Part shown: piece by piece, positions 5,624-29,082 of the stretch
Position numbering within the stretch: the stretch's first letter is position 1
Layout: each line of letters opens with the position of its first letter
Source: an uncultured Chloroflexia bacterium
Lineage (GTDB): Bacteria; Chloroflexota; Anaerolineae; Anaerolineales; Anaerolineaceae
Assembly (NCBI GenBank): GCA_963704755.1
Contig: OY969938.1
Location: 2,430,001-2,462,000 of the forward strand
Direction: 5' to 3'
Length of the DNA stretch: 32,000 bases
Notes under the pieces: generated by a model
The model's input: only the letters and a program-made list of their open reading frames with translations
Database searches by the model: none
Told to the model about the DNA's origin: nothing
Made by a program: the position numbers and the translations under genes

Positions 5624-5629
5624 TTCGGA

Positions 5630-5953: not shown

Positions 5954-5971
5954 AGTCTCTAAATTCTCCTT

Positions 5972-11352: not shown

Positions 11353-14300
11353 CTAAGGTAATCTCCTCTCGTATGGCTCCCCGACCCATTGTGGATTAAG
11401 AATTATATTTGTTTTCCCAATTCCCTTGGCGTACTCGGACAATGCGATATTTGTTGGTGTCCCAGAACAAATTACCGACCAATGTTTTAATCCTCCCCCG
11501 AGTTCAGGCGTGAATGTTCCAGTACATATTGGAATATCCACAACAGGACCATTTGAACCTGGAACAATGGGCGTTTTGACTTTTACTTTAAGTCCTAATG
11601 CATAGGGCTTGTTGCCTGGCAAATCAGCAAGCTCAAAGGTGGATACACCATCCACGTCAACTCTGAATTGGCTAGGACTTGTTATTGGCTTTTTAAAGTA
11701 ACTTCTCTCAGAATTTATATCTCCATCAAGCCCTCTATAAATGATCACTATAGTTGAAGGTTCGGGTGTCTCCGTTGGGATCTTTGGGGGAAATGGATCA
11801 ATTGTGGGAACCGGCTCTGGAGATGGCTCTGGTACTGGTTCGGGCAGACCTAACAAGTCTTCCCAAGTCAATGTACATCTATCGCCAAGAACATCCACAG
11901 ATCTAGCGAGGTCTCCGGCATGCTGTGATGCCATAATTGCAGTGTAGGCAGCGGTTCCAAATATGACGGCACATATTCCAACCCCAACTGCGTCCCCAAT
12001 GGGAAGTGGCCCATCCACTGTGGCTGCAAGCAAAAATAATGCACCACAATCTGTAATCGGATCTTGGCCTGAAGGATCGGTATAAATTATTGGATTCGAA
12101 TACGAGTAGTTCCACTTGTTATAAGATACCGGGCGTCTGAAATTTCCTACCCATGTATCTCTTGAAATGAATTTTCCATCTCCACTGGCATAATATCTTG
12201 CCCGTAGATACACCAATCCTGTCTGCGGATCATAATTCTCCCCGGTAAAGGCATAATCTGTCTCGGCTTCCCCATCACTGGCCAATACCTCCCCATACGG
12301 CTCGTAACTGCGGTTCAGGCGTACTTCACCCGACTCGTCCACCAACTGGCGCACCGAGCCAAGCGCATCGCCAATAAAATACTCAATCGAAGCAGCACTT
12401 TCTTGTTCCAGCCGACCGTTTCCGTAAAGGTAAGTCTGTGCTCCATCCGCCAGGACCTGGGTGAGCCCGGCGTTCAGATCCAGGGTATAGGTCTTCAGTA
12501 TGCCACTGGTGGTAGAGGTCAGGCGGTCTCCCTGGCCGTTATAGCTATAGCTGCTAATCACTGACCCCTGATTATTAATCGTTATCAGCCGGTTGGCATG
12601 ATCGTATGTGTAGATATAGGTCCCATCGTTCAGCAAATTGCCGTTATCATCCCACTGGTATTCGGTCTCATTGACATTGGCCAGCCGGTTGGCAGCGTCG
12701 TAGCTATAGCTGGTCGTCCCGGCAGCAGTCGTTTCGCTCAGCCGGTTACCAACCGAATCGTAGGTGTAGTGGAAGTTTGTCCCATCGTTGTTGACTGCAT
12801 CGGTCAGCCGGTAAAGGGCATCGTAGCCATAGGTGATGCTGGTCTCGACCCGCTCGGGATCCGTATAGGTCACCGCATCCGATCCGGTCCCGGTTTCCAC
12901 CGTCTGCACTTCGCTGCCCCCACTGCTGTTGTGGGCCGTCAGCCGGTACCAGTAGGGGGTCAGGCGCGCCAGTCCGTAATCGACATACTCCAGAACGTTA
13001 GCGCCCAGTTCAGCGACCGGCAGCCAATGCTCCCCGTCGGTGCTGCGCTCCAGAGTATACCCATCCTCAATAATGGAACTGTCCGGCCAACTTAAACGAA
13101 TGGCAAGGAAGCCTTCCTCCACCGCCGTCAACGCCTGGGGCAGCGGGATACTGCTGGAGGGTAAATGGCTTTCCACCACGGCTGTGCGGTTGCCGACTTC
13201 GTCCACCGTATAGACAAACGAGGACAGACTCTTCCCAAGGCGGGTATATCCCAACGAGGTCAGCCGGCCGGCGCTGTCGTAATGAGAGGTAGCCACTACG
13301 CTATTAGGCAGGGTGGTGGTGGCCGCTCGCCCACCCCGATCCCAGGTATAGGTCGTGTGTTGGCCGTCCCAACCGGTAACCCCTGCGAGCCGACCGGACT
13401 GATCATACACGTACGATACCGTCTTATCATCCGGGTATATTAAGCGGGTGCGGTTGCCCACCGCATCATAGGCATAACCGGTTGTTTGCTGGTACGGGTC
13501 CTGGATAGTTTCTGGCCGGCCCAAGGCATCGTAGGTCCAGGTAGTGATGCCGACTCCATCGGTCATGGTATGGCGGGTACCAGAAAGGTAATATGTGAAA
13601 GCTACATCCGCATCAGGAGCCGGGTAATCGATGAGAGTTTGCCGGTCGAGATCGTCGTAATAGTAATGGGTTGTGACGCCGTTCGCGTCCGTCAGGCTGG
13701 CCTGGTTTCCTGCTGCATCGTAGGTGTAGGTGATCTGGTGGCTCAACGCGTCTTCTTCGTTTTCAACTCTGCCCATTGCATCGTAAGAGAAGAGGGTCTG
13801 GTGCCCCAAGCCATCGTTGATTGCTTCGCGATTTCCGGCCGCATCGTATTCGTATTCGGTGCGCACGTTGGTTTCCTGGTCGGTAGCCATCCCTTCCTGA
13901 TAGTTCTCAATTACGGCGGTCAATCGCCCGGTTGCGTCATATTCGTATTTCGTCACGATCCCTTTGGCGTCCACCAGGCCAATCTGGTTTCCAGCCGCAT
14001 CATACACATTGCGGGTTACATGCTGCATGGGGTCGGTCTGTTTCACCAGCCTATTCAGGTTATCGTAGGTGTACTTTGTTTCGAAACCATTGGAATCAAC
14101 TACCGAAATACGGTTACCACTAGGATCGTAACCGGTCAGGGTCACCTGGTCCCGGTCGGTCGCAGCATTGGCAGTATAGTCCAGGCATGGATTCCCAACA
14201 GTCGGGTTCTCGATGTGCTTGACCTCTCGGCCCGAAGCATCGTAACAGAAATACACCTCTCCGCCGTTGGGATCGATCGTTTTCATAACCGTTCCGGCCG

Positions 14301-17300
14301 CGGTATATTCTGTCTGGGACTGGACGTTTTCATCTGTAACCTGGGGATCGAAAACTGGCAGCGGATCTTCGATTGACGCGCTGATGAAATTATCCACTGA
14401 TGCAACGACCTGCTGGCGAGCGTCATAGTAACTGCGCGAGACGGTCCCGTCCGAGCCTTGAGAGGCAATCTGGTCGCCCAGGTTATCGTATGAATAATCC
14501 GAGCGAATATTGCTGTCTTCGTCACAACTTACGCCAACCTGCAAACAATCCGGGGGCTGTGGATCGTAAATATCCCAATCGCTCAGATTCTGGATAGTTG
14601 TTGTGGCGCGGTTTAATGCGTCGAAATAAGTCCTTGTGATGGAACCGCTGCCGTCCGCCGCCCTCCACAGCTTGCTTCCAATTTGCTGCCCGGCCGCGTC
14701 GTAATAATAGTCTGTACGGATGTTGCGATCCGGAAAGGCCTGGTCAAAAACAGGCGCCGGGTCGAAGATCGAACTGCTGACGAAGTTCTGGATGGTGGTC
14801 GTGGTCCGGCCGGCTTCATCCGTATACAACCGAGATATTAGATTTCTGTCCGGAAACCCCGCTTCGACTTCTGTCTGGGTGAGCTCTCCATCCGCCGTTT
14901 CAGGCGGCTCCCAATAATTCTTAACAACTGCAATCTGGGTACCATCCGTATCGTAGTAATAACGGGTCACCAGGTTCCGGTCCGGAGCGGCAGGATCGAA
15001 AGCGGGAACTGCGGGGCTGCTGACATCCCCAACAAAATTATCGACAGTATATTCGACCTGGCCAAGGGAATTGTAAAAAGTGCGTGTGATGAAATTGTAT
15101 TGGCTCGAGAATTCCAGGACACCATCCGCGTCCGGGTCGTAATAATTACGGATGTTGGCGTACTGTTGGCCCATTTCGTCGTAAGCTGTAAAGGAAACCA
15201 CGTTATAGAGAGCGTCCCCAACTTGTAGATAATCCGGTTGTCCGGGAACGCAGGCTGTACGGATGAAGACCGGCCGGTTGAGTGCATCATAGGTCGTACA
15301 GGTGATCTGGTTGCGGTCGGGAGCATCGGGATCCACTTTAATCCAGCGATAAACGCCGTCTATCTTTACCTGAACGCTAAAACCATCTCCATCAGAATCG
15401 GTTAAATTAGGGTCGTAATTGTTTATTGTTTTAGTTACATTTCCCACATCATCATATTCATATGCTTCTAAAAGATCATAGATTTTACGCATTCGAGCTT
15501 GATCACCGTATGTGTAATGGAAATAGTTCCCATTACCCGAATATAGTTTCCTAATGATAGCAATTCTTCCTGCTTTATCATATTCGGTTCGGGTAACCTG
15601 GTTATATTCAGGAAAATCAAAGTTTACTTCAACCCGCCCTGTATTGATTTCGAATTCATCGAAAAAGATTTGATAAAAGGTAGAACCATAATAACCAGGA
15701 AGATCACCATCATAATAGTTGTTAATTTGAACCACAACTCGTCCTGCCGGATCATAATAGTATCGTGTCGAAAAATTATAGAGGTTTAAATAATACTGGG
15801 AATGACCAGGCCAATAATTCGTGATGGACTCGGTAGGCCGGCCATTTGAATCATATGTGTTATGGGTAATAATATTGTATTCGGGTTTATCCGGATCGAT
15901 TTCTAGCCGATATTCTGGGATGCCATCATGATCAAAATCCAACGTCAAGATCGGTTCGACCTGCTCATCCCCTGTTAAATCCCCATCGAACGCATTGGTA
16001 ACCGTATCGATGGACTTCCCTTCTGAATCATACGTGTAGAGAGTGGTGAAATTCCATAAGCCGTCCTCGTAAGGGCCTTTTGATTCTTCATAATTTCTGA
16101 TTACAGCATCGGCGTTATTATCCACATCGTAATACTCGTAGCGAGTGACGTACCCATTCGCATCCGTTGTAGCGGTCACTCGCCCCAGGACGTCATATTC
16201 CGTCTGGGTTTCGATGTCTTCATTAGAATCTCCGGTTTCCGGGTCCATGTCCACACAGTTGGTATAAACGTGGGTCTGCTGGCCATATTCATCGTATGAA
16301 TAGCAAGTATCAGAACCCGGTGCCTCTATTTTACGAAGCAGGTTGGGCGGTTCAGGCGCATCGGAAGCGGTTGTATACGTGTACCTTGTGACCAGGTTGG
16401 CGTCTGGATCAATGGATCCTTCCACAAAATTGGTGATTTCCATCAATACCAGGTCTTCGTCCCAATCCGGGTTATAGATTGCAGCTTCTGTCAGCGGATC
16501 TAGAACTCCTGGCGTATTATAGACAACCTTGGTAACGGTTTCGTCAGGGTTGGTTACTTCCGTCAGATGATTGCTGCCATCATAATCCAAGCTGGTGGTA
16601 TGATCCAGCGCATCCGTCAATGATGTCAGGTTTGCCCCGTCTTCACTCCATTCCATCTGAGTTGTGTTATTCGCAGCATCAGTTAAAGTATTTAATTTGA
16701 AATTGGAATCGAGAGTTTGCGTACTTGCATTCCCAAAATTGTCTGTTGACCCCGAAAATGTATTCTGATTAATATTGTAACCCTGGGTCGAAATATAGCC
16801 CAATTGATCGATCAGAGTCGCGGTTAGGTCAGCATTGTATGTAATCGAGGTAGCTGCCGCTAATTCGCCATTTGCTTGAAGGCAATGTACCTGATTATAC
16901 AAATGGTTAAAACCAGTCACTGGGGGGTAGGCATCCCCTTCCTGCTGGCAAACAACCCGTCCAGAATCATCGAATATATTGCGCACCTCTGTCCTTAGGC
17001 TGGCCGGATTTGCTGCTTCTTCCAATTGTACGGTGGTTATGCGGTGATCAGAATCGTAGGTATAATGATAAATATTTCCAAGGATATCTGTATATGTGAC
17101 AAGATCCTGGCTTGAATCGTACGAATAGGAAAGACTCCTCCCGGTGTAATCCTCCACTGTAGTCAATAAACCATCCGTATAGAAGAACTCCAGGTATCGG
17201 TCTCCGGTAGGGTCGGAAATCCTGGACAATTCACCATTATCATATAAATAAGTGAATGCCTGCCCTGTAGACGATTCCCAGCGTGTTATTTTCCCGTTTT

Positions 17301-18543
17301 CGTCAAAAGTATATTCGGTCTGCCCCGAATCGCTCAATGTATACTCATCAGTTAACGAATCATAACTCAGGGAAGCCGTCACACCCGCATAGGGGGTATA
17401 GGTCCCATCCGGGTTGGCCGTGAAGAGATATTGGTTTGCCGACTGCGCCTTGAGGCGGATGTCACCATTTTCTTGAATATCGAGGTAAATGTCCTGGTTA
17501 TGCGTCCATCCGTACCCCAATACCGTATCCGTTCCAGGAACATAGAGATTCAAATCCCCGGAGCCAGAGGAATAGGAGCGTTGGAAAACCAATTGACCAG
17601 CAGAAGTTGGGATGGATATATCTTCAACGCTATAGTCGAAACTTCCCGTTCTCGTGTTGACTGGATCAGCCACGTTTCCAGTTGCACCGGTGCATTTTCC
17701 CAGCGGACATTCGCGTGAGTCTCCAGTACCGTTTTTTGTCGAACCGCTGGAGAGCATATGGTAGTACAACAAAGTAGGATGATATTTCGATGGCGTATTC
17801 GAAAGAAATGAGAACCAGGCTATCCGATAGGCGTTTCCGACATTAGTTTGCTGAGTAATCGAATACCGAAGATACCGGATATTTGCCGGCGAGGCCGACA
17901 AATCATAATCGTAGTTGCCACATCGTTCGTTTTGCCAGGAGGTCGTCCCCTCATCAAAAGTATTCCAATTTACTTCATCTTCGGAATATTCTAGTTTCCA
18001 GATTCCATGATGCAAATCCCAAGAGGTAAATTTCTTGATTTCAAAAACCTCCCCAAGATCGAAAATTACCCAGGCATCTCCACCGCTGTCTGGCGCCATG
18101 ACATTTGTATAATTTCCAGATCCGAAATTACAATCTCCTTCAGGCGAAAGAGCTCTTCCCTCGTCATAGGTTCTAAACAAGTCAGCAACCGAAAAATACC
18201 CACTATCACTTGTGTAGCAATACCCAAATCCTTCCGGGCAATATACATCGGAATACAAGATCACGTTCTGTTTCGCGGGTTTGACATATGCAGGGGGAAG
18301 GGCATTCCTCACATCGATCAATAACGGACTTTTCGAAGAATTTTCCGGCATAGTCGTTAAATATTCACTTATTTGGGCATTGTCTTGAGATAATATTTGG
18401 TTAGCCGAACTTTCACTTGTTTCGCTCTTTGCCTGAGCTTTCGTTGGAAATACAAAGGCAGAAATAACCAGGCTGATAGCCACGATCATATTGATGAGCT
18501 TATAAACTACGCGACCTACGTGAGAATGGAAGAAACTGTGCAT
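11353..18543 (-). CDS. Rhs/YD-repeat polymorphic toxin, Sec-signal type, with an unassigned C-terminal toxin tip
   Basis: 2396 aa, preceded by AGGAGGG plus a 4-nt spacer. Reading the product from the N-terminus:
- Signal peptide: ..LVISAFVFPTKAQA/KS.
- Discoidin/F5-8-C-like region: ..DAWVIFDLGEVFEIKKF..
- RHS entry motif: DPVNTRTGSFDYSVEDISIP..LVFQRSYSS.
- Dozens of YD repeats (xYxYDxxGRL/NR).
- FN3 insert at nt 12890-13140.
- Core end: YSNPIIYTDPSG (DPSG at nt 12067-12078).
- A 237-aa tip follows the core end. Confidence 0.9.
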   Translation of the reverse strand: MHSFFHSHVGRVVYKLINMIVAISLVISAFVFPTKAQAKSETSESSANQILSQDNAQISEYLTTMPENSSKSPLLIDVRNALPPAYVKPAKQNVILYSDVYCPEGFGYCYTSDSGYFSVADLFRTYDEGRALSPEGDCNFGSGNYTNVMAPDSGGDAWVIFDLGEVFEIKKFTSWDLHHGIWKLEYSEDEVNWNTFDEGTTSWQNERCGNYDYDLSASPANIRYLRYSITQQTNVGNAYRIAWFSFLSNTPSKYHPTLLYYHMLSSGSTKNGTGDSRECPLGKCTGATGNVADPVNTRTGSFDYSVEDISIPTSAGQLVFQRSYSSGSGDLNLYVPGTDTVLGYGWTHNQDIYLDIQENGDIRLKAQSANQYLFTANPDGTYTPYAGVTASLSYDSLTDEYTLSDSGQTEYTFDENGKITRWESSTGQAFTYLYDNGELSRISDPTGDRYLEFFYTDGLLTTVEDYTGRSLSYSYDSSQDLVTYTDILGNIYHYTYDSDHRITTVQLEEAANPASLRTEVRNIFDDSGRVVCQQEGDAYPPVTGFNHLYNQVHCLQANGELAAATSITYNADLTATLIDQLGYISTQGYNINQNTFSGSTDNFGNASTQTLDSNFKLNTLTDAANNTTQMEWSEDGANLTSLTDALDHTTSLDYDGSNHLTEVTNPDETVTKVVYNTPGVLDPLTEAAIYNPDWDEDLVLMEITNFVEGSIDPDANLVTRYTYTTASDAPEPPNLLRKIEAPGSDTCYSYDEYGQQTHVYTNCVDMDPETGDSNEDIETQTEYDVLGRVTATTDANGYVTRYEYYDVDNNADAVIRNYEESKGPYEDGLWNFTTLYTYDSEGKSIDTVTNAFDGDLTGDEQVEPILTLDFDHDGIPEYRLEIDPDKPEYNIITHNTYDSNGRPTESITNYWPGHSQYYLNLYNFSTRYYYDPAGRVVVQINNYYDGDLPGYYGSTFYQIFFDEFEINTGRVEVNFDFPEYNQVTRTEYDKAGRIAIIRKLYSGNGNYFHYTYGDQARMRKIYDLLEAYEYDDVGNVTKTINNYDPNLTDSDGDGFSVQVKIDGVYRWIKVDPDAPDRNQITCTTYDALNRPVFIRTACVPGQPDYLQVGDALYNVVSFTAYDEMGQQYANIRNYYDPDADGVLEFSSQYNFITRTFYNSLGQVEYTVDNFVGDVSSPAVPAFDPAAPDRNLVTRYYYDTDGTQIAVVKNYWEPPETADGELTQTEVEAGFPDRNLISRLYTDEAGRTTTTIQNFVSSSIFDPAPVFDQAFPDRNIRTDYYYDAAGQQIGSKLWRAADGSGSITRTYFDALNRATTTIQNLSDWDIYDPQPPDCLQVGVSCDEDSNIRSDYSYDNLGDQIASQGSDGTVSRSYYDARQQVVASVDNFISASIEDPLPVFDPQVTDENVQSQTEYTAAGTVMKTIDPNGGEVYFCYDASGREVKHIENPTVGNPCLDYTANAATDRDQVTLTGYDPSGNRISVVDSNGFETKYTYDNLNRLVKQTDPMQHVTRNVYDAAGNQIGLVDAKGIVTKYEYDATGRLTAVIENYQEGMATDQETNVRTEYEYDAAGNREAINDGLGHQTLFSYDAMGRVENEEDALSHQITYTYDAAGNQASLTDANGVTTHYYYDDLDRQTLIDYPAPDADVAFTYYLSGTRHTMTDGVGITTWTYDALGRPETIQDPYQQTTGYAYDAVGNRTRLIYPDDKTVSYVYDQSGRLAGVTGWDGQHTTYTWDRGGRAATTTLPNSVVATSHYDSAGRLTSLGYTRLGKSLSSFVYTVDEVGNRTAVVESHLPSSSIPLPQALTAVEEGFLAIRLSWPDSSIIEDGYTLERSTDGEHWLPVAELGANVLEYVDYGLARLTPYWYRLTAHNSSGGSEVQTVETGTGSDAVTYTDPERVETSITYGYDALYRLTDAVNNDGTNFHYTYDSVGNRLSETTAAGTTSYSYDAANRLANVNETEYQWDDNGNLLNDGTYIYTYDHANRLITINNQGSVISSYSYNGQGDRLTSTTSGILKTYTLDLNAGLTQVLADGAQTYLYGNGRLEQESAASIEYFIGDALGSVRQLVDESGEVRLNRSYEPYGEVLASDGEAETDYAFTGENYDPQTGLVYLRARYYASGDGKFISRDTWVGNFRRPVSYNKWNYSYSNPIIYTDPSGQDPITDCGALFLLAATVDGPLPIGDAVGVGICAVIFGTAAYTAIMASQHAGDLARSVDVLGDRCTLTWEDLLGLPEPVPEPSPEPVPTIDPFPPKIPTETPEPSTIVIIYRGLDGDINSERSYFKKPITSPSQFRVDVDGVSTFELADLPGNKPYALGLKVKVKTPIVPGSNGPVVDIPICTGTFTPELGGGLKHWSVICSGTPTNIALSEYAKGIGKTNIILNPQWVGEPYERRLP
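12221..12456. repeat. Repeat copy B (inside main rhs core-end region), paired with 10148-10383
   Basis: Same alignment as copy A. Homology to the orphan stops at 12456; the main gene continues with YD repeats while the orphan continues with AT-rich spacer. Confidence 0.85.
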
Positions 18544-18630
18544 GCATCCCTCCTGCTATAATCGCTTTTTTGAATTAATCATCGAGACCGAGTTTTCATT
18601 TTTACGCCGGTGGCTATTAACATATACCTA

Positions 18631-18789
18631 TTTCTGTAGAGCGCCGTAATACAGGATAAGACGTCCTTCATCGATTTCACCACCATCTTTTTGGGGGGCA
18701 CCGATCAAGACATCATCTATTTCGTCCCCGTTTACATCTCCTGCAATCCAGGTCGAGTAACCAAAATTCGAATAAGTTTGGTTGCCAAC
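18631..18789 (-). other. In-frame 53-codon continuation of the giant ORF past its TAA; encodes a seventh FG-GAP blade
   Basis: Checked codon by codon. After the TAA (18790-18792) the same frame reads VGNQTYSNFGYSTWIAGDVNGDEIDDVLIGAPQKDGGEIDEGRLILYYGALQK, then TAG at 18628-18630. This matches the preceding six blades (FGxSxxxAGDxNGDGxxDxxxGAP....G..Y.Y.G). Confidence 0.8.
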
Positions 18790-21700
18790 TTAAGTCCAGC
18801 AATTGGCTCCACTGAACCCGGAATCGCCCCCGAAATAAATGTAAATTTTGCCCTCACGGCCCCCCTCGCTGGTTAATCCGTTCGCACCAATGAGGATGTC
18901 AATGTATCCATCCCCATTAAAATCACCCAAAGCACTAATCGATCTTCCAAATTGATCCCCTGCTTGATCACCATATTCGACCCATAAAGGTTGGGGCGCT
19001 AATCCTTCCATGGAACCTTGAAAGACGGACAACTCACCACTATCCACATAAGACCCATCGAAATCAGGGGCACCAACCAGAATATCGCCAATTCCATCCT
19101 TGTTCAGGTCTCCTGCAAGGCTTACAACCTCTCCTAAATGAGCATAGGCTTGGTTTCCACTGACCGACCAATCGGCTGTCTCAGACAAACCATTAGCCGA
19201 GCCATAATAAACGTATGCCGTACCTTCCTGATCATACGTTCCAGTGGAATTAGGGGCTCCAATGATTAAATCGCCAAAACCATCCAGATTTACATCCCCG
19301 GCGCTGCTAACCGATAGGCCAAACAAGCTATTATGCTCTTGGCCAAAACCAATCCATGCAGGAGTGGGGTTTAACCCACTGCTTCCTCCCAAATAAACGT
19401 AAACCGCCCCCAGGTTGGAGTTTCCATCCAATAGGTTCGGTGCGCTGATATAGACGTCATCATATTGATCGCCGTTAATATCTCCCGCCGAGCCGGCTGT
19501 ATATCCGAACGCTGCATAATCCTGGTTCCCCTCTAAAGTCAAACTGGGGGTGCTACTCAATCCATTTTCTGACCCGTAATAGATATAAACGCAGCCTTCA
19601 TCTATCTCCGCGCGACTACACCCCAAAGAACTTACGACCACATCATCAAAACCATCCTGGTTGACATCGCCGGCGCCGCTCACCGACCAGCCAAAACGCG
19701 CTTGAGCAACTCCGCCCTCGAGTGTCAAGCCAGGATTCGTGTCCAGACCTGTTTGAGAGCCATAATATGCAAAAATGGCCCCTTCGTTGGCCTGACCGTT
19801 GGCATAATAAGGTGACCCAACTACCACGTCGTCATACCCATCACCATTGATGTCCCCTACGATGCTGGCTGACCAGCCATAGTACCCTGCTATTTGCTGA
19901 CTCTCTGTACTCCAGGCTAATTGAAGTGCCTGTGTGGTTGGCAAAGACAAGCCAGCCACTGTTATTTGAATCGTTTTTTCCTCGATGACCGATGAGCCAA
20001 CTGTGAAAGTGATGTCACCCTCCGAATCGCTGACGCCAAGTTCTGTCCACGCTCCGGGTTCCACTTCCAACTCATTGACCAGGTTTTCGGTTCCGCTTAC
20101 CTGAACGGAAACCGGTAAGCCCGCGAGAGGGACTCCAAAACCATTTCTTAATCGGATATTAACCGGTAATGAGGTCGCATTGTCAGAATATATTCTGGCA
20201 GTCCCATACTCAACCGTTGAGTCTTCCAAATCTACACCAGGGAAAGATAGGAGGTTATGCGGGACCACTTCTCTAGCCAGTTCGGGGGCAGACCAATCTA
20301 ACCGTACAGATGCATCCCCTACATCATCAAAATACTCTAGCCTGATATCAACGGTGGTTCCGCTTTGGAGTTCAATTTGTCCCTGATCGTTTTTCAACCC
20401 ATTCGAGACCCAATCGTCAATGACAAGTTGGTCATTTATATATAGTCGAACTCCGCCATCAACTTCGGTGTAAAACGTATATAACCCATCTACCGGAACG
20501 CTTACCTGACCACTCCATCGGATAGAGAAATTATCAACCGGCAAACTCTCGAAAGGTGCGTCCACTCCCCAATCGTGGTCGACAATTTCGCCAAATTGGT
20601 CAGCAACCGGATTTCCTTCCAATGATGGATTGTTGAAATACTCACCCAGCAAGCCCGTAATATCTGCAGATGACAAAAATTCGATAAGTTTGTGATCATA
20701 GAGCACGTTATTCTGCACGCGTACTGAATATCGCTTTACGCCGCTTGCCGTACATAAAAATTGAGCATTTATTCGTCCGTCACGACCGGTTTCTCCCAGA
20801 TATATCCAATTACCGGGATCCACAGGGGTTTGTGCAATGCTGCATCCCTCGTTATAAACTTGAAGGAATGCAGGCAGGCCAGCGATCACCAGACCTTCGG
20901 TTGTGGTTATTTGTATTGCTATTTCTGCATTATTTCCCGCTATAGGATAGGATGGTGATACATCGGGTTCGGTACTATTCAGGCTGATCCCATCTGAATT
21001 CATGCTATCAAGAGGAATTATTTCTTGGGTCTGTGAGGCGGAGCTCCATTCGAGCCGGATAACCGCGTCGCCAGTTGTTTCATAATATTCAAGGACAACC
21101 TTTGCTTGATGTCCGGCACTCATTTGGACATTTCCGCTATCCCAGTTCGCGGTATGAGGATTCCAATTATCGATGAGCAAATCATCATCCACCCAAAGCC
21201 GTACACCTTCGTCGGAATATGTGTAAAAAGTGTACGTTTCGTCGTATTCTGGATTAATATAACCTTCCCAACGCACTGAAAAATTATCCGTAATCGGCTC
21301 CAAAAACGGCCCACCAGAACCCCAATCATAGTCTATTACTTGACCATATTGTACAAATGCGGCCGGCGCCAGGAGTTGCGAGTTCGGAAAGAAAGTCCCC
21401 TTTAACCCGCTAATATCATCGTTGGTTGTAAAAGTGATACCTAAAAGGTAGCGATCAATATAGTCTCCGGTTTCAACTGAAATCAATTTGTAATCCGCCA
21501 CGGATGAAGCCAAAGTGGTCTGCACGACACCTTCTGAATCAGTTTGTCCAACATAGGTCCAATCGCTACTTTCAACAGATATTCCGGAAACTTTACTGCC
21601 ATCGCCAGTAACTTTCAAATAAACGGATTCATTTTGGACGGCAGCTCCATCTTCATCCACAACCCGTATCCCAATTTCACTTTCGGCTCTCCCATTTGCC

Positions 21701-24700
21701 GGCAGAGAACGTGGGCTTGCTGAAATTTCAAACCTTCCATTCGGGTCATCCGGAATTGAGCGCAGATTTTCCAAGGGAATGATCTCCCTGGCAATTTGCG
21801 ATGACTCCCATTCCAACTTCGCGGACGCGCCACCTCCATCCTCATAATACTCAATGACAATTTCGTAATATTGCCCTTCCTCAAAATCGTATTGAATTGA
21901 ATCTTCTGTAGGCCCTCTTCCATACCAGCTATTAATCATTAGCTCACCATTTACCCAGAGGCGTGCTCCATCATCGGTTGTCAGGTAAAGGGTATACATT
22001 CCATCCAAACTTGGCCAGATGTATCCGCTCCAGCGGATCGAAAATTGGTCAGAAGGTATCCCATTGATGGGATTTCCCTCCATCCAGTCATAATCAATTA
22101 TTTCTCCATATCTGGTCTGTGCAGCCGGCGGATCTAAATTAGGATTAGTAAAATATTCTGCCTGAAGCCCACTTGTTAATCCCGGGATAAGAAACTCAAG
22201 TTCTGTTTCATTCGGGAAATAAGCATCCTGGACTTTAACCCTCATCAATTTTACGCCGGCTTCAACCGAAGAGACTTGAGTTGTTACTGCACCTGTCTCA
22301 TCTGTCAACCCCAAATAAACAAAACTTTGTGGGGCCAATTCGTTATCATCAATGAAATTCCCATATCCACTTAAAGAGACATAAACGGGGAGGCCGGATA
22401 ATGGCTGGCTATTTGAATCTGCAACATTGACTGTAACAGTTATAGCCTCAATCCCATCAGCCGGAGCATATCCTGGGTCTAGTTGAACAGTAGTCCCTGA
22501 AATATCCATGCTCCCATAGCTCAGATTTTCTTGAGGAATTACTTCCCGAGGAGTCCTTTCAGAGTCCCACTCAAAGTGCATGTCTGCACCACCTCCCTGC
22601 TGGAAGTACTCCAAAACCAGATCATATTTATTGCCAGCTTCCAGGTATATTTCTCCAGAATCCCATTCCGGCCCATGAACAGTCCAATTATCAATTAATA
22701 GTTCACCATCTACCCACAGCCTTACGCCATCATCAGTCAATGTATAAAAAGTATAAAGTTCGCTATAATCTGGAGTAACTTGTCCTGTCCATCGAATAGA
22801 ATAATTGTCTGGGCCGATGCCTTCAGGGAGATTACTTTCTCCAAAAACGAAATCGACTACTGGATCGATTCTTGTAAATGAAATAGGCGGTTCAAGGGAA
22901 GTGTTCAGATAATAGTCTGCTCGTAAACCATTCATAGAAGGAGGAAACTCAACAAAAAATTCACCCACGATAGGTAAAAGTGATTCTCCTATTTTTACTT
23001 CAACACGCTTTTCCTCACTGGTCGTCGATTTAACACTGGTTGATACCAAACCATCATCATCGCTGGTTCCAATCAACACCCACTGGCCATTCTCGATCTG
23101 TTCATCTCCTACCCAATTAGAGCTTCCGCTTACATTAATTGAAACAGGCAGCCCCGATATCGAAACATCTTCGGAATTTGCAATCCGCACATTCAAATCC
23201 AGCTCCGATTCACCGTCTGCAAAAATCGGTCCTTTTCCAAATTCAATTGTTGATCCGCCAAAATCCGGATCAGAAGTTGAGGCGTTTTCTAAAGGAACGA
23301 TCTCAAAGGGTAAAGAAGAAGAACTCCAGGCCAAATAAGCATAAGCGTCTCCTGTTTCATCAAAGATTTCCAGGGTAACATCGACTTTCTCCCCCGATGA
23401 TAGAGCAATCTCACCTTTGTTTTCTGTTCCGTATGGGGGACTCCAATTATCAATGATCAATTGGTTATCTACCCATAACCGGATCCCCTCGTCAGCCCCG
23501 GCATAAAATGTATAAGTTTCATCGTATTCTGCTTCGATCTGCCCACTCCACCGCGCAGAAAAATGATCTTCCGGCACGCCTGGTTCAGGCGCGGAGGTTC
23601 CCCAATCGTAATCGATAACTTCCCCATACTTTTTTAGAATCGCCGGCCCTTCTAAAGAGGTGTCGTCGAAATATTCAGCCAGAAACCCTTGAATTTCAAC
23701 TACTTGAATATAAGTGACCTGGGTTGTTGTCCCTAATTCAATATTCTCAACTCTAGCTCGTACTTCTACTTGCTCGATTTCACTCGATTGCAGAACTGCA
23801 TTCACAGTTCCATCGTATCCACTTGTGCCAACATAAATCCAGTCACCCCAATAAACTGGGATCCCGTTTAATGTACAATCATCCCCGTTGACTTGAAAGA
23901 ACACATCTTCTCCAGCCACTGGTACATTGTTTGAGTTTAGCAAATTTACAGTAATTACAGAATCATGGTCAATGCTTACTTGTGCCGGCTCAGATGATAT
24001 AGTCGAAGAGGCGAGATCTATTTGTGGGTATCCCAGGTTATCGACAGGGATGATTTGGCGTTCGGTAGATGGAGAACTCCACTCCATTTGGATAACAGCA
24101 TCTCCATCAACTTCGTAGTACTCAAGGACAATATCAACATTTACCCCGGCTTCAAGATCGATTTGAGCGCTATCCCATTCGGCCGTATGTGCATCCCAAT
24201 TATCAATTAACAATTCGCCATCGACCCATAATCGAACACCCTCATTTGAATTAGTGAAGAACGTGTACGTTTCGCTATAATCTGGGTCGATGTTACCCTC
24301 CCAGCGTACAGAAAAATTGTCAGTCATTGATTTAGGGATTGGCCCACCCGGTTCCCAGTCAAAATCAATTACTTGCCCATATTGGACAAACGAGGCCGGT
24401 CCCTGTAATAGCGGATTTGAAAAGTATGTACCTTTTAATCCAGCCAATTCGTTATTCTCGTCAAACGAAATGCCCAAAATGTACTCGTCCAACCACACAA
24501 TCGTTTTAAGAGAAATCAATTTATGATCCATTGCTGTGGAAGCCAATGAGGCATAAACATTACCCTCTGAATCCGTCAGGCCTAAAGACACCCATTCACC
24601 ATTACCTACAGGTGTTCCATTAATCCGGCTTCCAGATCCAGTGACTTTTATAAATACTTCTTCGTTTTGGACATCTGATCCATCTGGATTTAATACGTGT

Positions 24701-27372
24701 ATGTTAATTCCACTGGCTGATCTCCCGTTTGCTGGCACAGAAACAGAATCTGCGGTTACCTCGAACCTACCATTAGGAAAATCCGGAACAGATCGATAAT
24801 TTTCTACAGGGATGACCTTTCTAGATACTTGTGACGATTCCCATTCCAACGAAATATTGGCTGCTCCACCGTTTTCGTAATACTCGACAACAATGTCATA
24901 ATATTGCCCTGCTTCCAAATAATAATCAACGGAATCTTCTGTCCGCCCACGGTCATACCATCCATTGATTAAAAGTACTCCGTCAATCCAAAGGCGCGCC
25001 CCATCATCAGAGGATAAATATAACGTATACATTCCGTCGTAGTCAGCTAGAAGTTGTCCGCTCCAGCGAGCCGAGAAATTATCATATGGCAACCCGATCG
25101 CAGGTGATCCATAAGACCAGTCGTGATTAATTTGTTGATCATATCGGATCTGGGCCGCTGGTGGTGTCAAATTTTGATTTGTAAAATATTCTGCTTGAAG
25201 TCCCTCGGTCAAATCAGGGATTGCAAATTCGACAGCTGACGAATCGGGAAGGAAATCTCCCCCAATAAAGGCTCGGATATTCTTATCACCTGCCGAAAAT
25301 GAGGAGATATTGGCAGTTACAACTCCAAACTCGTCTGTCAAGCCCAGGTAGACAAATCTGCCAGGAAATTGTTCATTTCCATCAATAATGTTTCCATACC
25401 CACTTATGGATAAATACACCGGTAACCCGGATATACTCAAGTCGCTTGAATTTGCCGCGCGAATCGTTGTGATGATAGCTTCTTCCCCATCTGCCAACGC
25501 GTGGTCCTCACTAAGTTGGATTTCTGATCCGGACAGATCCTGAGATCCAAATTCATAACTCAATTGTTCCTCGGGTATTACTTCTTGCGGTGTATGTTCG
25601 GAACTCCATTCAAGAATCAGGTCTGCTTCTCCGCTTTCCTGGAAATGTTCCATTACAAGATCATATTTTTGCCCAGCCTGCAAGTCAATTTGACCAGAAT
25701 ACCAGTCTGATCCTACTGACCAATTTTCCACCAACAACTGACCATCCACCCATAGCGCTATGCCGTCATCTGCCAAGACATGGAAGGTATAGGTTTCAGA
25801 AAACTCAGCTTCTACCCTTCCAACCCACCGAACCGAAAAATTATCCGGCTCTATACCGATCGGAAGGTTATCGTAACCTAACCAAAAATCTAAAGCAGGG
25901 TCTATTCGTGTCTCGGCAACCGGATCATTCAAATTGATATTTGGGTAATAATCCCCACGAAGACCATTTGTACTTGTAGGAAGCACAACATTAATAACCG
26001 AAAAAGTGGAAAGGGGGACATCTGCTACCTTTACATGTATTTGTTTTTCTTCAACTAAACTTGAGCTGAACGAAACGACAATTTCTCCGCCAACGTCGCT
26101 GCTTCCTATTGACCGCCATTCCCCATTATTGGCTTCTTCTCCATCTATCCAATCGTCGTTTCCAGAGACATTAAGTGAAACAGGCAAACCGAAAAGTGGG
26201 GTACCTTGCGAATCAGACAATTTAACAGTCAAGTTCACAGCATTTCCCCTACCGGCATAGACCGGCTCGGTTTCTGTTTCAATTGTTGAACCTGAAACAT
26301 CTATTCCATATTTAGAGAGTCGTTCTATTGGGATTGTCTCCAAAGGAGTTGACAATGAACTCCATGACAAATTAATTTGGGCGTCCCCTTCTTCATCAAA
26401 AATTTCTAGGATGACATCAACTTTTTGCCCCGCCTGTAATTCAATCTCTCCACTATTCTCTGTTTCGTATGGAGCACTCCAATTGTCAATAATCAATTCA
26501 TTGTCAACCCATAATCGAACGCCTTCATCAGATGTCGTATAAAATGTATAGACTTCGTCATTCTCCGCTTCAATTTGTCCACTCCACCGCATCGAAAAAT
26601 AATCCGCAGGTACACCATCTTCAGGTGCTGATGTTCCCCAATCGTAATCGACAACTTCACCGTATTTTTTAAGAACAGCAGGCTCTTCTAAAGTGGTGTT
26701 GTCGAAATATTCAGCCTGCAATCCCTGGAGCTGGACCCCCGCGTCGTAGATGACCGTGGCCAGTAGATTTAATTCAGTACCTTCAACTCGCACCCGAATT
26801 TCGTACATACCTGCAAAATCCGACTCTAATACTGCTGTGACACTTCCATCCATATCACTTTCACCAATAGAGGTCCATTCGCCAGAGTTTGTTGAGTTTT
26901 CATTCAGCCGGCCGCCTTCTCCGGTGATTTGCAGGAAGACCTCTAAATCAGGTACTGCCACACCGCTAGAATTCAATAAAGTAACCACAATTGTTGATTC
27001 ATCACCAACCAACAATTGTTCAGGTGCTACGTCGAGCGTAGACAAATCGACGTCAAGCACTTCTTCATTAACACTTGGTCGTCGAAAAGCCGAATACTCA
27101 TTGTCAGGCTTTTCAGGAATTATTGAGGATGTTAAATCTAATCCGTTTGTTTCTAATCTACTTTTGGGGGAGTCAGTAAAAGTAGTGATCTTTGTCCCGT
27201 TTTTGGACGATACATTGGATTGCGCGGACACCGGTAGGATGTTGGAATTCGGTAAACATAAAGTGGACAAAATCAAAGATGAAACGCAAAATACTGCGAT
27301 TAGCTTCCAGAAAAGAGAAAATGTCATTCGGTTGTGTAATTCACGGACGAAAGGTAAATTTTGCTTTGACAT
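18790..27372 (-). CDS. Giant secreted or surface protein: signal peptide, nine (Ig-like + PA14) modules, a tenth Ig-like domain and a C-terminal FG-GAP/integrin-alpha-type beta-propeller
   Basis: 2860 aa with signal peptide ..LILSTLCLPNSNILPVSA/QS.
- PA14 starts (GLQAEYF / GLRGDYY / GLKGTYF types) fall at residues 217, 470, 724, 978, 1229, 1482, 1735, 1989 and 2240, a period of 251-254 aa.
- Each has the RW(S/E/T)G..(Y)TF....DDG.RLW(V/I)(D/N) PA14 core.
- FG-GAP blades run from residue about 2494 (nt 19893 downward) with a period of about 61 aa. Confidence 0.9.
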   Translation of the reverse strand: MSKQNLPFVRELHNRMTFSLFWKLIAVFCVSSLILSTLCLPNSNILPVSAQSNVSSKNGTKITTFTDSPKSRLETNGLDLTSSIIPEKPDNEYSAFRRPSVNEEVLDVDLSTLDVAPEQLLVGDESTIVVTLLNSSGVAVPDLEVFLQITGEGGRLNENSTNSGEWTSIGESDMDGSVTAVLESDFAGMYEIRVRVEGTELNLLATVIYDAGVQLQGLQAEYFDNTTLEEPAVLKKYGEVVDYDWGTSAPEDGVPADYFSMRWSGQIEAENDEVYTFYTTSDEGVRLWVDNELIIDNWSAPYETENSGEIELQAGQKVDVILEIFDEEGDAQINLSWSSLSTPLETIPIERLSKYGIDVSGSTIETETEPVYAGRGNAVNLTVKLSDSQGTPLFGLPVSLNVSGNDDWIDGEEANNGEWRSIGSSDVGGEIVVSFSSSLVEEKQIHVKVADVPLSTFSVINVVLPTSTNGLRGDYYPNINLNDPVAETRIDPALDFWLGYDNLPIGIEPDNFSVRWVGRVEAEFSETYTFHVLADDGIALWVDGQLLVENWSVGSDWYSGQIDLQAGQKYDLVMEHFQESGEADLILEWSSEHTPQEVIPEEQLSYEFGSQDLSGSEIQLSEDHALADGEEAIITTIRAANSSDLSISGLPVYLSISGYGNIIDGNEQFPGRFVYLGLTDEFGVVTANISSFSAGDKNIRAFIGGDFLPDSSAVEFAIPDLTEGLQAEYFTNQNLTPPAAQIRYDQQINHDWSYGSPAIGLPYDNFSARWSGQLLADYDGMYTLYLSSDDGARLWIDGVLLINGWYDRGRTEDSVDYYLEAGQYYDIVVEYYENGGAANISLEWESSQVSRKVIPVENYRSVPDFPNGRFEVTADSVSVPANGRSASGINIHVLNPDGSDVQNEEVFIKVTGSGSRINGTPVGNGEWVSLGLTDSEGNVYASLASTAMDHKLISLKTIVWLDEYILGISFDENNELAGLKGTYFSNPLLQGPASFVQYGQVIDFDWEPGGPIPKSMTDNFSVRWEGNIDPDYSETYTFFTNSNEGVRLWVDGELLIDNWDAHTAEWDSAQIDLEAGVNVDIVLEYYEVDGDAVIQMEWSSPSTERQIIPVDNLGYPQIDLASSTISSEPAQVSIDHDSVITVNLLNSNNVPVAGEDVFFQVNGDDCTLNGIPVYWGDWIYVGTSGYDGTVNAVLQSSEIEQVEVRARVENIELGTTTQVTYIQVVEIQGFLAEYFDDTSLEGPAILKKYGEVIDYDWGTSAPEPGVPEDHFSARWSGQIEAEYDETYTFYAGADEGIRLWVDNQLIIDNWSPPYGTENKGEIALSSGEKVDVTLEIFDETGDAYAYLAWSSSSLPFEIVPLENASTSDPDFGGSTIEFGKGPIFADGESELDLNVRIANSEDVSISGLPVSINVSGSSNWVGDEQIENGQWVLIGTSDDDGLVSTSVKSTTSEEKRVEVKIGESLLPIVGEFFVEFPPSMNGLRADYYLNTSLEPPISFTRIDPVVDFVFGESNLPEGIGPDNYSIRWTGQVTPDYSELYTFYTLTDDGVRLWVDGELLIDNWTVHGPEWDSGEIYLEAGNKYDLVLEYFQQGGGADMHFEWDSERTPREVIPQENLSYGSMDISGTTVQLDPGYAPADGIEAITVTVNVADSNSQPLSGLPVYVSLSGYGNFIDDNELAPQSFVYLGLTDETGAVTTQVSSVEAGVKLMRVKVQDAYFPNETELEFLIPGLTSGLQAEYFTNPNLDPPAAQTRYGEIIDYDWMEGNPINGIPSDQFSIRWSGYIWPSLDGMYTLYLTTDDGARLWVNGELMINSWYGRGPTEDSIQYDFEEGQYYEIVIEYYEDGGGASAKLEWESSQIAREIIPLENLRSIPDDPNGRFEISASPRSLPANGRAESEIGIRVVDEDGAAVQNESVYLKVTGDGSKVSGISVESSDWTYVGQTDSEGVVQTTLASSVADYKLISVETGDYIDRYLLGITFTTNDDISGLKGTFFPNSQLLAPAAFVQYGQVIDYDWGSGGPFLEPITDNFSVRWEGYINPEYDETYTFYTYSDEGVRLWVDDDLLIDNWNPHTANWDSGNVQMSAGHQAKVVLEYYETTGDAVIRLEWSSASQTQEIIPLDSMNSDGISLNSTEPDVSPSYPIAGNNAEIAIQITTTEGLVIAGLPAFLQVYNEGCSIAQTPVDPGNWIYLGETGRDGRINAQFLCTASGVKRYSVRVQNNVLYDHKLIEFLSSADITGLLGEYFNNPSLEGNPVADQFGEIVDHDWGVDAPFESLPVDNFSIRWSGQVSVPVDGLYTFYTEVDGGVRLYINDQLVIDDWVSNGLKNDQGQIELQSGTTVDIRLEYFDDVGDASVRLDWSAPELAREVVPHNLLSFPGVDLEDSTVEYGTARIYSDNATSLPVNIRLRNGFGVPLAGLPVSVQVSGTENLVNELEVEPGAWTELGVSDSEGDITFTVGSSVIEEKTIQITVAGLSLPTTQALQLAWSTESQQIAGYYGWSASIVGDINGDGYDDVVVGSPYYANGQANEGAIFAYYGSQTGLDTNPGLTLEGGVAQARFGWSVSGAGDVNQDGFDDVVVSSLGCSRAEIDEGCVYIYYGSENGLSSTPSLTLEGNQDYAAFGYTAGSAGDINGDQYDDVYISAPNLLDGNSNLGAVYVYLGGSSGLNPTPAWIGFGQEHNSLFGLSVSSAGDVNLDGFGDLIIGAPNSTGTYDQEGTAYVYYGSANGLSETADWSVSGNQAYAHLGEVVSLAGDLNKDGIGDILVGAPDFDGSYVDSGELSVFQGSMEGLAPQPLWVEYGDQAGDQFGRSISALGDFNGDGYIDILIGANGLTSEGGREGKIYIYFGGDSGFSGANCWT
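20656..26724. repeat. Tandem ~3.03-kb super-repeat inside the giant gene, each copy holding four Ig+PA14 modules
   Basis: Modules 1-4 pair with modules 5-8 one to one. For example, ..AVLKKYGEVVDYDWGTSAPEDGVP.. aligns with ..AILKKYGEVIDYDWGTSAPEPGVP.., and ..TRIDPALDFWLGYDNLP.. aligns with ..TRIDPVVDFVFGESNLP... The copy boundary is at residue 1229 (nt 23688). Module 9 resembles type A. Confidence 0.8.
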
Positions 27373-27977: not shown

Positions 27978-28048
27978 AGCTATGTACCAAATTACGCTTT
28001 GGCTTTCTAGGTCGCCCACAGCCTCAGATTTGCAATACACCTATGAAG

Positions 28049-28095
28049 CGACTACCTGTACATTCAGTACTTGTAGTCGTTTTTTTTGTTTTTTT
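28049..28095 (+). terminator. Intrinsic-terminator-like hairpin plus U-tract immediately upstream of the first Tad-operon RBS; candidate attenuator
   Basis: The stem pairs cgactac..gtac (28049-28061) with gtac..gtagtcg (28067-28079): 7+4 bp with a 2-nt internal mismatch and loop attca. T8-G-T7 follows at 28080-28095, then cAGGAG and TTG at 28108. Confidence 0.6.
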
Positions 28096-28107
28096 CAGGA
28101 GTTTAAC

Positions 28108-29082
28108 TTGAAGTCCAAATTCTTTCCATTATTCCAAAAAGAAAAACGGCTCACCATCCTGATGGCTTCCTATAATCCTGACCAAACGATCCTTGAATTC
28201 CTTTCTCTTCAACCAGATCTAAATATTCGTGAAGCTTTTTCTACTCAAGGGATGATCCAGGGATTACCTCTTTCCGATCTCGTTATTCACGATCACCTGA
28301 TCGAAACTAATAGCATCTCGTGGGAACTTATCAGCCGTACCTTGGAAAAAATTAGGGTTCCCACAATTACCCCTGATGTTTTTCTCGCCAACCCGGAAGA
28401 GTGGTTAAGTAAAGCACGACTGGCAAAGTCCACAAAGATTTCTTTTCTGCCTTCACACCAAATAAGTATATTGAATTGGTCTGGTGGCGTAGGGAAAACC
28501 ACCCTTTCTCTGGCAACATGCAAACGGTTCATTGAGAAAACGGGGTTGCCAGCAGCTCTCCTGGAATTGGGCATGGGTTGTAGTGCCTTGCAAGCCAGAT
28601 TACCAGGCGATCTACCGGAATTCTACAACCTTACCATAGGAAAAGAACCTCCGGGAAAATGGCAAGGTGTGTCAATCTATTCAATGGATATCCGCTCCTT
28701 CGAGGTATTGTGGCGGGAAAACCCGACAAAAGTCCTGGATTTCGTAAATCAAATTAGAAAGAGCCATACTCTTCTGGTGTTTGACTGTTTCCCTGGCCAT
28801 GTCTTGTTTCCTGAAGTAATGAATACAAATTTACCGACCACGAACCTTGTTATTGCTTCTCCCCGCGAAGACACCCTGGCCCAGGCGAAGCGCTTGATGT
28901 CCGAGGTCCCTGAGCCAACCCATCTAGTATTGAATATGGCCAGAAGCCTGGCTGACTCGGCCGGCACAGGCGCATCAGTTACTCTTCCCTATAACGAACG
29001 CTGGGCAACCTCGTTCGATCACCGCCTCGCCGACCCCCTCCTGGAGCTGGTCTACCCGGGCTGGAACAAGAGGAAGCCATGA
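28108..29082 (+). CDS. TadZ/CpaE-like pilus-assembly protein: receiver-like N-domain plus ParA/MinD-like ATPase domain with a deviant Walker A
   Basis: ISILNWSGGVGKTTLSLA lacks the signature Lys of KGGxGKT. LLVFDCFPG is Walker B-like, and KRLTILMASYNPD begins a receiver-like fold. I place the start at TTG 28108, which has AGGAG 6 nt upstream. The track's ATG at 27982 would translate through the terminator hairpin and has no RBS. Confidence 0.6.
   Translation: MKSKFFPLFQKEKRLTILMASYNPDQTILEFLSLQPDLNIREAFSTQGMIQGLPLSDLVIHDHLIETNSISWELISRTLEKIRVPTITPDVFLANPEEWLSKARLAKSTKISFLPSHQISILNWSGGVGKTTLSLATCKRFIEKTGLPAALLELGMGCSALQARLPGDLPEFYNLTIGKEPPGKWQGVSIYSMDIRSFEVLWRENPTKVLDFVNQIRKSHTLLVFDCFPGHVLFPEVMNTNLPTTNLVIASPREDTLAQAKRLMSEVPEPTHLVLNMARSLADSAGTGASVTLPYNERWATSFDHRLADPLLELVYPGWNKRKP

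Follow-up and report, generated by a model that had tools for sequence, protein, structure and literature searches.

In solved Rhs barrels, DUF6531 is the N-terminal plug, and the core supplies the C-terminal plug and an aspartyl protease (PMC10684867). Sec-dependent export of a WapA-type Rhs protein with DUF6531 has a precedent in Streptococcus suis (PMC12704120). Integrin-like propellers coupled to RHS toxins have been catalogued as the TcdB/TcaC type, Chloroflexi included, and discoidin-type adhesion domains have been noted at the N-termini of Sec-exported toxins (PMC3482391). The bacterial teneurin-like proteins, which are also Sec-exported, combine an FN-plug, an NHL propeller and a YD shell with variable N-terminal adhesion domains; no delivery machinery is evident for them, and this was named as an open question (PMC13018210). 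Here we describe an rhs locus in a stretch of 32,000 nucleotides (nt) from an uncultured Chloroflexia bacterium (contig OY969938.1), referred to below as the window. Two giant open reading frames (ORFs) follow one another on its minus strand: 27372..18790 (2,860 amino acids, aa) upstream, encoding an adhesin-like protein that ends in an FG-GAP propeller, and 18543..11353 (2,396 aa) downstream, encoding an Rhs toxin. An original prediction, made from the letters of this DNA, had proposed that the two products form a contact or delivery module. We found that the propeller belongs to a small subgroup whose placement directly 5' of Rhs-type genes is non-random and recurrent.

Judged by its sequence, the Rhs protein is an ordinary WapA-class Sec-exported polymorphic toxin. 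With the WapA type (Bacillus subtilis WapA; S. suis WapA-CT, PMC12704120) it shares the Sec signal peptide, the DUF6531 plug, the YD shell and a core ending in DPSG, as well as a variable C-terminal toxin, a downstream gene at the immunity position, an orphan fragment and the absence of type VI (T6SS) and type VII (T7SS) secretion systems. It differs from that type in having a discoidin-like N-terminal domain, an Fn3-like shell insertion and a Chloroflexota-type host. Pfam and NCBIfam profiles matched no cell-wall-binding, LysM or DNRLRE module and no SrtB/SecF-like partner in the Rhs or its neighbours. An upstream partner gene whose product has a propeller at its tip, as found here, has no described counterpart for WapA.

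Solved Rhs shells are the best sequence matches of the window Rhs in the PDB (8h8a, E=2e-33; Tse5, E=5e-26). The DUF6531 plug, the YD shell and the aspartyl-protease core are common to the T6SS Rhs effectors (Tse5, RhsA, Rhs1, RhsP), from which the window protein differs by a signal peptide in place of a PAAR, prePAAR or VgrG-binding region; neither an Eag chaperone nor T6SS genes are present in the window. The LXG/WXG toxins of the T7SS differ in that profile searches revealed no LXG/WXG N-terminal domain here and no EssC-type ATPase nearby. The predicted lack of PAAR, VgrG-adaptor, LXG/WXG and prePAAR regions at the Rhs N-terminus is confirmed by these searches, in which the Pfam and NCBIfam profiles gave no match of the Rhs to PAAR, prePAAR, VgrG, LXG, WXG, SpvB or NHL families.

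Two described systems join a propeller to such a shell. Tc toxin B/C components (PMC3482391, PMC8023676) resemble the locus in that a propeller of the FG-GAP/VCBS superfamily is tied to an RHS cocoon with a C-terminal toxin. Unlike them, the window has no SpvB/VRP1 or TcdB_mid domain in either giant protein (E≤0.01) and no TcA-like gene within its 32 kilobases (kb), and its propeller is on a separate protein, at the C-terminus, and of integrin-alpha type by sequence. The teneurin-like proteins are likewise Sec-exported YD-shell toxins with adhesion modules and a propeller in the system and no obvious delivery machinery, and the window shell and core match PDB entries 9pt5/9ifo at E ~1e-18. In contrast to them, no FN-plug, NHL/TEN_NHL or TIP domain was detected in the window, the plug is DUF6531, and the propeller is FG-GAP and encoded in trans; moreover, Chloroflexota is not among the six phyla reported for these proteins (PMC13018210). 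The upstream protein, for its part, resembles giant PA14/Ig-repeat adhesins and bacterial integrin-alpha-like FG-GAP proteins in its signal peptide, its long tandem Ig-like and PA14 modules and its seven-blade propeller with DxDxDG-type loops. It departs from them in that the propeller is terminal, falls in an Rhs-adjacent subgroup and is interrupted by a stop codon.

FG-GAP propellers are generic, with 5,784 proteins matching at E≤1e-20, many of them from unrelated phyla at 39-50% identity. Propeller identity was rejected as a proof of orthology, because propellers of unrelated phyla score equal to or above the protein of locus L002, one of the relatives described below. An all-against-all BLAST comparison revealed that the propellers of the window, of two other loci (L002 and L010) and of three further proteins (P0197, P0190 and P0235) are mutual top hits. 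In all six, the propeller ends its protein and a co-directional gene for a signal-peptide-bearing product lies 11-135 nt downstream; this gene is a proven Rhs in three (the window, L002 and L010). The remaining three were found without reference to Rhs and were used as a blind test. In each of them the FG-GAP gene ends after blade 7, and a signal-peptide-bearing co-directional gene starts 94-135 nt later and runs off the contig, which is short. The partial downstream product of L073 matches the N-terminus of the Rhs protein P0038 at 50% over 212 aa, and those of L071 and L072 match the N-terminus of P0045 more weakly, at 36-46% over 81-89 aa; P0038 and P0045 are bona fide DUF6531-Rhs proteins, and the matched region is their N-terminal extension. 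Three propellers outside the subgroup (P0174, P0175 and P0245) have no Rhs downstream, and a strong hairpin comes after the P0245 gene. Terminator-like hairpins are absent from all six propeller-to-Rhs gaps. The genes around the pair vary from locus to locus, as does what stands in front of the propeller in the upstream protein (PA14 array, RCC1 propeller, other sequences), and the conserved element is the junction of the terminal propeller with the start of the Rhs gene. That the two genes are more than chance neighbours, as had been predicted, is supported by the six-locus subgroup and by the absence of the arrangement in the three propellers outside it.

The neighbourhoods were also surveyed from the Rhs side, on the basis of 63 genome loci and 12 contig look-ups. 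The loci were collected from one genome per species with a profile of DUF6531 and the early shell, each with up to 10 kb of upstream sequence, and were searched for FG-GAP with profiles built from the window's own repeats and by tblastn with the propeller. An FG-GAP gene was found upstream of the Rhs in two loci, L002 and L010, in both cases directly adjoining and co-directional. The upstream gene of L002 (an uncultured Anaerolineaceae bacterium) encodes an RCC1 propeller and seven FG-GAP blades that are colinear with those of the window at 47% identity, and its Rhs has the same N-terminal order of signal peptide, discoidin-like domain and DUF6531. At L010, 13 nt separate the FG-GAP stop codon from the ATG of the next gene, which encodes a giant Rhs with a signal peptide. 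The nearest Rhs homologue (P0002, locus L001) is 52% identical over almost its full length, and the gene 68 nt upstream of it has no FG-GAP; its product is a secreted protein of 947 aa in which repeated domains occur along with a Thr/Pro-rich linker. Other adhesin-type genes close upstream are a PKD/cadherin-like gene at L049 (2,408 aa, 24 nt away) and one at L008 with DUF7948, a domain that is fused to Rhs elsewhere. No adhesin gene lies upstream of P0004, P0013 and P0007. The suggested co-occurrence of a PA14/FG-GAP gene with rhs stands for the subgroup propellers, which precede an Rhs-type gene at six of six loci, and fails as a general conservation among Rhs loci.

The same kinds of domains are also found fused to Rhs. 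P0010 is a single polypeptide composed of a signal peptide, seven FG-GAP blades, DUF6531 and Rhs; PA14 and Big_1 domains are fused before DUF6531-Rhs in P0129 (locus L016) and in L037; and FG-GAP/VCBS families are also present in P0055, P0069, P0080 and P0102. Among the 63 loci, DUF6531 is preceded by a median of 530 aa, and by at least 400 aa in 37 of them.

The upstream protein of the window has the predicted composition of nine PA14 domains followed by FG-GAP, according to domain profiles. Its array consists of a duplicated four-module unit and a ninth module. Modules 1/5, 2/6, 3/7 and 4/8 are 48-58% identical and the remaining pairs ~27-38%, a pattern that we read as an old duplication with the frame kept open over 2,860 codons. 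A search of 5.8 billion clustered proteins gave no orthologue over the full length. The segment at aa 16-43 is the sole hydrophobic one of the whole protein in a hydropathy scan. The propeller comprises seven colinear FG-GAP blades with Ca-binding-type D-x-[DN]-x-D-G loops, and its nearest solved sequences are integrin alpha-V propellers (E=5e-27, among the best 60 PDB matches listed).

The seventh blade, however, lies behind an in-frame TAA, so that the intact propeller of the original prediction (18631-19893) was not borne out. Beyond this codon the frame runs to a TAG at 18630..18628 and encodes a perfect seventh blade, colinear with blade 7 of the L002 and L010 proteins, where these naturally end. 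A public database protein, P0121 (2,860 aa), likewise ends at the TAA. We regard the TAA as a genuine nonsense codon in the assembly because it is the commonest ordinary stop in the window; stop-codon reassignment or readthrough was considered and rejected, since TAA terminates most ordinary genes there. The simplest reading is a single change from GAA to TAA between blades 6 and 7, as the L002 residue aligned with it suggests (Glu). An erroneous base call may lie behind the TAA; otherwise, this strain may have a crippled accessory protein. As assembled, six of the seven blades are encoded and the gap to rhs is 246 nt; the co-directional pair of giant genes stands as predicted, and the 85-nt gap and complete propeller hold only when the TAA is disregarded.

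The two other predicted properties of the junction are confirmed. A strong ribosome-binding site precedes rhs (AGGAGG, 5 nt before the ATG), and a folding check of the intergenic stretch gave no terminator-like hairpin, shuffled sequences being more stable. No conserved motif common to the intergenic regions of the different loci was found, and Rfam and tRNA searches gave no match for a known RNA element. Two relatives carry a motif of ~25 nt, TTATTAAACCGCAyAyCATAyCA, some 35-60 nt 5' of the rhs start (L001, ~6738-6765; L002, ~4655-4685); the window shows no evident copy. A role as promoter or operator is conceivable, which would provide rhs with a transcription start of its own.

By inspection, both giant proteins have the predicted signal peptides: the n-region is basic, the hydrophobic core spans ~20 aa and the site is of the AXA type (VSA/Q and AQA/K); the hydrophobic core of the Rhs is at aa 9-38. 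The discoidin-like assignment is sub-threshold. The L002 orthologue of the Rhs has identical discoidin matches at the corresponding position, and the AlphaFold2 (AF2) model of the N-terminal domain (pLDDT 40, from a four-sequence alignment) is too poor to confirm the fold. The core motif 'RDTW...DPSG' is present, with DPSG at aa 2156, and the stretch that follows, up to ~aa 2269, is common to the Rhs proteins of L003, L028 and L034. Because both the DUF6531 plug and the core plug are present, the cocoon is closed at both poles by its own domains. The shell itself is interrupted by the Fn3-like insertion; CarboxypepD_reg/Big_1-type domains stand among the shell segments of P0002 (L001) and P0010, and insertions of this kind on the shell surface seem to offer this group of Rhs proteins a second site of variable display.

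The original prediction had treated the missing secretion-system marker as a puzzle, which it is not. The Rhs homologues come overwhelmingly from metagenome-assembled genomes of Anaerolineae/Chloroflexota, and nearly all have signal-peptide-like N-termini. Chloroflexi genomes lack outer-membrane protein genes and have been interpreted as monoderm (PMC6013643). Since the relatives are reported to be monoderm, Sec alone puts both proteins outside the cell, as for WapA, and the absence of T6SS and T7SS markers is expected rather than anomalous. That absence is itself confirmed for the window, where the neighbouring genes scanned encode phosphotransferase system (PTS), LevR-like, helix-turn-helix (HTH) and Tad-pilus proteins.

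The explanation that we favour, and to which we give an even chance, is that the locus encodes a Sec-dependent Rhs toxin together with an accessory surface protein in trans, in an Anaerolineae-type host, the propeller docking the Rhs particle outside the cell. The adhesin and rhs genes would be co-transcribed and both products exported by Sec. The upstream protein would be a secreted or N-terminally anchored Ig/PA14 rod with the seven-blade propeller at its tip; outside the cell the conserved propeller would dock the Rhs particle, and the variable N-terminal part would give reach and bind glycans or the target. This N-terminal part would then do in trans what is done in most relatives by binding arms joined to the Rhs itself, before DUF6531. 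The aspartyl-protease core should cut off and hold the toxin cargo. In this scheme the propeller would not gate the cocoon; the gate role that had been suggested for it is unlikely because the cocoon keeps its DUF6531 plug, and is not supported for an Rhs shell with its own plugs at both ends.

A more specific proposal, which we consider rather doubtful, is that Sec-exported Rhs toxins of monoderm Chloroflexota have the propeller proteins of the subgroup as dedicated subunits, which act in trans as adaptors or in receptor binding, with the propeller clamping the cocoon. If so, the exchangeable N-terminal part (PA14/Ig rod, RCC1 propeller or other) would select the target or carry the toxin out past the sheath, and the locus would encode a two-component contact-dependent toxin that uses the docking logic of TcA-TcB without the syringe. 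It would be a first handle on how Sec-exported YD-shell toxins reach their target cells. For the surface retention and delivery of such toxins (WapA, teneurin-like), the upstream partner gene is a testable candidate accessory factor, made up of a constant propeller and a swappable binding module, which would link free-standing FG-GAP propellers to the propeller-cocoon theme of the Tc toxins. The architecture had been put forward as undescribed. This has to be withdrawn for the coupling of integrin-like propellers with RHS, already catalogued as the TcdB/TcaC type, and it holds for the free-standing terminal propeller partner: our paper searches gave no account of DUF6531-Rhs genes whose conserved upstream partner encodes a free-standing protein with a terminal FG-GAP propeller.

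Several observations weigh against a docking partnership. The pairing is facultative, as the FG-GAP gene is upstream in only two of the 63 related Rhs loci, and it is missing from the nearest homologue (L001) and from P0004, P0013 and P0007. The subgroup is shallow, with 45-60% identity within it versus 42-48% outside, and none of its members is more peripheral than the window copy. As three of the six loci came to light via Rhs, their pairing is ascertainment-biased, and in three of the six the downstream gene is cut by the contig end before any RHS repeat. The window's own propeller is truncated by the stop codon. Finally, a lectin-like domain and two plugs of its own could allow the Rhs to function by itself, as WapA does.

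These points bear most directly on the possibility, less probable in our view but a serious one, that the genes are independent neighbours: a stand-alone adhesin, perhaps acting with the Tad pilus in attachment or biofilm, beside an autonomous WapA-like Rhs, with no coupling between them. The adjacency, here and in the other loci, would come from shared surface-protein islands, inherited synteny or co-regulation, and the locus would simply place two ordinary genes side by side, one for an Rhs toxin and one for a giant adhesin. Such independence is favoured by an Rhs that is self-sufficient on paper (signal peptide, lectin-like domain, both plugs), by the 61 of 63 related loci and the nearest homologue without an upstream FG-GAP gene, by the extreme commonness of FG-GAP propellers at 40-50% identity, by the Tad genes that adjoin the adhesin gene and by the tolerance of a nonsense codon in that gene. 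It does not sit well with the unbiased part of the subgroup, in which three of three propellers are followed by a gene resembling an Rhs N-terminus, as opposed to none of three outside, nor with flanks and N-terminal modules that vary while the propeller-to-Rhs junction stays. The gaps, furthermore, are small and terminator-free, and equivalent domain types are fused in cis to Rhs in other relatives.

Gene fission or decay is improbable. According to this explanation the locus once encoded one polypeptide of array, FG-GAP and DUF6531-Rhs, like P0010 or P0129, of which the upstream part survives as a pseudogene in decay; fused architectures do exist, and the upstream gene already has a nonsense codon. 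Yet the signal peptide, Shine-Dalgarno sequence and discoidin domain of the Rhs are its own and are conserved in L001 and L002, and the upstream protein ends at an equivalent natural C-terminus after blade 7 in six loci. The frame of 2,860 codons is otherwise intact, with modules that have diverged to 27-58% identity and no further stop or frameshift. Least credible of all, and already disfavoured, is a split Tc-like toxin (TcB/TcC, TcdB/TcaC-type) whose propeller gates the cocoon and docks to a TcA-like translocator: the TcB propeller does belong to the VCBS/FG-GAP superfamily (PMC8023676), toxins with signal peptide, SpvB, integrin-like propeller and RHS are listed in Chloroflexi (PMC3482391) and a few FG-GAP homologues also match TcdB_toxin_midN, but the Tc domains and the TcA-like gene are missing as described above, the N-terminal pole of the shell holds its own DUF6531 plug (PMC10684867), and the propeller is nearest to integrin alpha, with no TcB chain among the best 60 PDB matches listed.

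Table 1. Features of the rhs locus and of the adhesin-like gene upstream of it (positions in the window)
Feature	Position	Strand	Basis or remark
Orphan rhs core fragment (displaced 3' end), ends DPSG + 11 aa, TAA	9958..10400	-	Sequence match to main rhs
Candidate immunity gene, 222 aa	10579..11247	-	Position only, 105 nt 3' of rhs
Rhs polymorphic toxin gene, 2396 aa	11353..18543	-	RHS repeats, DUF6531, Rhs core profiles
C-terminal toxin domain, aa 2262-2396 (135 aa)	11356..11760	-	Small family; AF2 pLDDT 98
Post-core hydrophobic helix (aa ~2180-2206) and Pro-rich linker (aa 2161-2261)	11761..12063	-	Hydropathy, motif inspection
Rhs-associated core, C-terminal plug and aspartyl protease, aa 2080-2160	12064..12306	-	TIGR03696 E=1.2e-14
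YD/RHS shell, aa 373-2079	12307..17427	-	RHS_repeat E=2e-63 in 12 stretches; YD_repeat_2x E=2e-43
Fn3-like shell insertion, aa 1800-1886 (~87 aa)	12886-13146	-	tblastn alignment to L001 breaks at aa 1792-1864
DUF6531 N-terminal plug, aa 293-372, begins DPVNTRTG	17428..17667	-	PF20148 E=2e-11
Discoidin-like (F5/8 type C, NedA-like) domain, sub-threshold, aa 143-237	17833..18117	-	E=8e-6, 26.5 bits vs cutoff 28.2
Rhs signal peptide, aa 1-38, AQA/KS site	18430..18543	-	Inspection and hydropathy
Spacer before rhs	18544..18627	-	AGGAGG at 18554..18549; no terminator-like hairpin; minimum free energy -11 kcal/mol, weaker than shuffles
Propeller blade 7, 53 sense codons + TAG, untranslated as assembled	18628..18789	-	In frame behind TAA
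In-frame TAA nonsense codon between blades 6 and 7	18790..18792	-	L002 protein aligns Glu there
Giant adhesin-like gene as assembled, 2860 aa, ends at in-frame TAA	18790..27372	-	Same sequence as P0121 in public databases
FG-GAP (integrin-alpha-type) propeller blades 1-6, aa 2492-2860	18793..19899	-	Pfam FG-GAP E=1e-37
10 Big_1/invasin-like Ig alternating with 9 PA14, aa 100-2488	19909..27075	-	Domain profiles; 4-module super-repeat
Adhesin signal peptide or signal anchor, aa 1-51, core aa 16-43, VSA/Q site	27220..27372	-	Hydropathy scan and inspection

The toxin domain at the C-terminus of the Rhs represents a separate small family that is absent from the nearest Rhs relatives. We identified 58 homologues in 1.84 billion representative proteins, mostly at the C-terminus behind an Rhs core motif. 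Their alignment revealed that S40, H93 and W94 are invariant and that C79 and C98 are nearly so, which suggests a predicted extracytoplasmic hydrolase. The domain has no match in Pfam, NCBIfam or the PDB sequences, and a Foldseek search of the PDB with its AF2 model gave no fold match (best E=1, TM ≤0.23); the modelled fold may be without a solved counterpart. An ADP-ribosyltransferase, first considered from the motif 'YRG...STFE', was dropped, as neither profile nor fold supports it.

The candidate immunity gene has no Pfam or family match and forms a singleton cluster. At the two closest Rhs loci, L001 (15404-16462) and L002 (12087-13103), the immunity position directly 3' of rhs is taken by a gene for a beta-propeller protein (338-352 aa; PD40-like or PQQ_2-like). 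Beta-propellers had not been found among the immunity proteins of polymorphic toxins, as Zhang et al. (2012) remarked. The orphan fragment is 92% identical at the nucleotide level over 300 nt with 12141-12440, in the core of the main gene, and is the usual trace of C-terminal displacement, typical of rhs loci; a displaced toxin could have been lost there. An HTH_3 ORF of 137 aa (9538-9951, minus strand) starts two codons past the fragment in the same frame, which we judged to be a coincidence (a 1-in-3 chance). The G+C content is 0.38-0.41 at 10-12 kb versus 0.53-0.57 at 12-15 kb, and the low stretch takes in the immunity candidate, the orphan fragment and the greater part of the toxin domain, which would fit the horizontal acquisition of a toxin-immunity cassette.

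The genes on either side of the locus are of other kinds. Located 3' of the toxin locus, at 834-8596 on the minus strand, is a sugar-uptake set that is unusual for an Anaerolineae-type genome, with mannose-family PTS IIA, IIB, IIC and IID, lactose/cellobiose-type PTS IIA and IIB, a YdjC-like protein and a LevR-like PRD/sigma-54-activator regulator. On the other side, at 27982-31090 on the plus strand, are Tad/Flp-pilus-type genes, including a CpaE/ParA-like ATPase, CpaB/RcpC and a CpaF-type T2SSE ATPase. They are divergent from the adhesin gene, across a spacer of ~600 nt with 36% G+C and no Rfam element. Two of the surveyed loci, L001 (573-3299 and 17139-18931) and L065 (4142-6921), have in common a flanking set of unannotated genes, in which an opposite-strand pair of ~421-437 aa and 179 aa is followed by ORFs of ~77 aa and 155 aa. 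A similar pair of 424 aa and 178 aa occurs again downstream of the Rhs in L001, and the set may be a mobile-element frame around Rhs genes.

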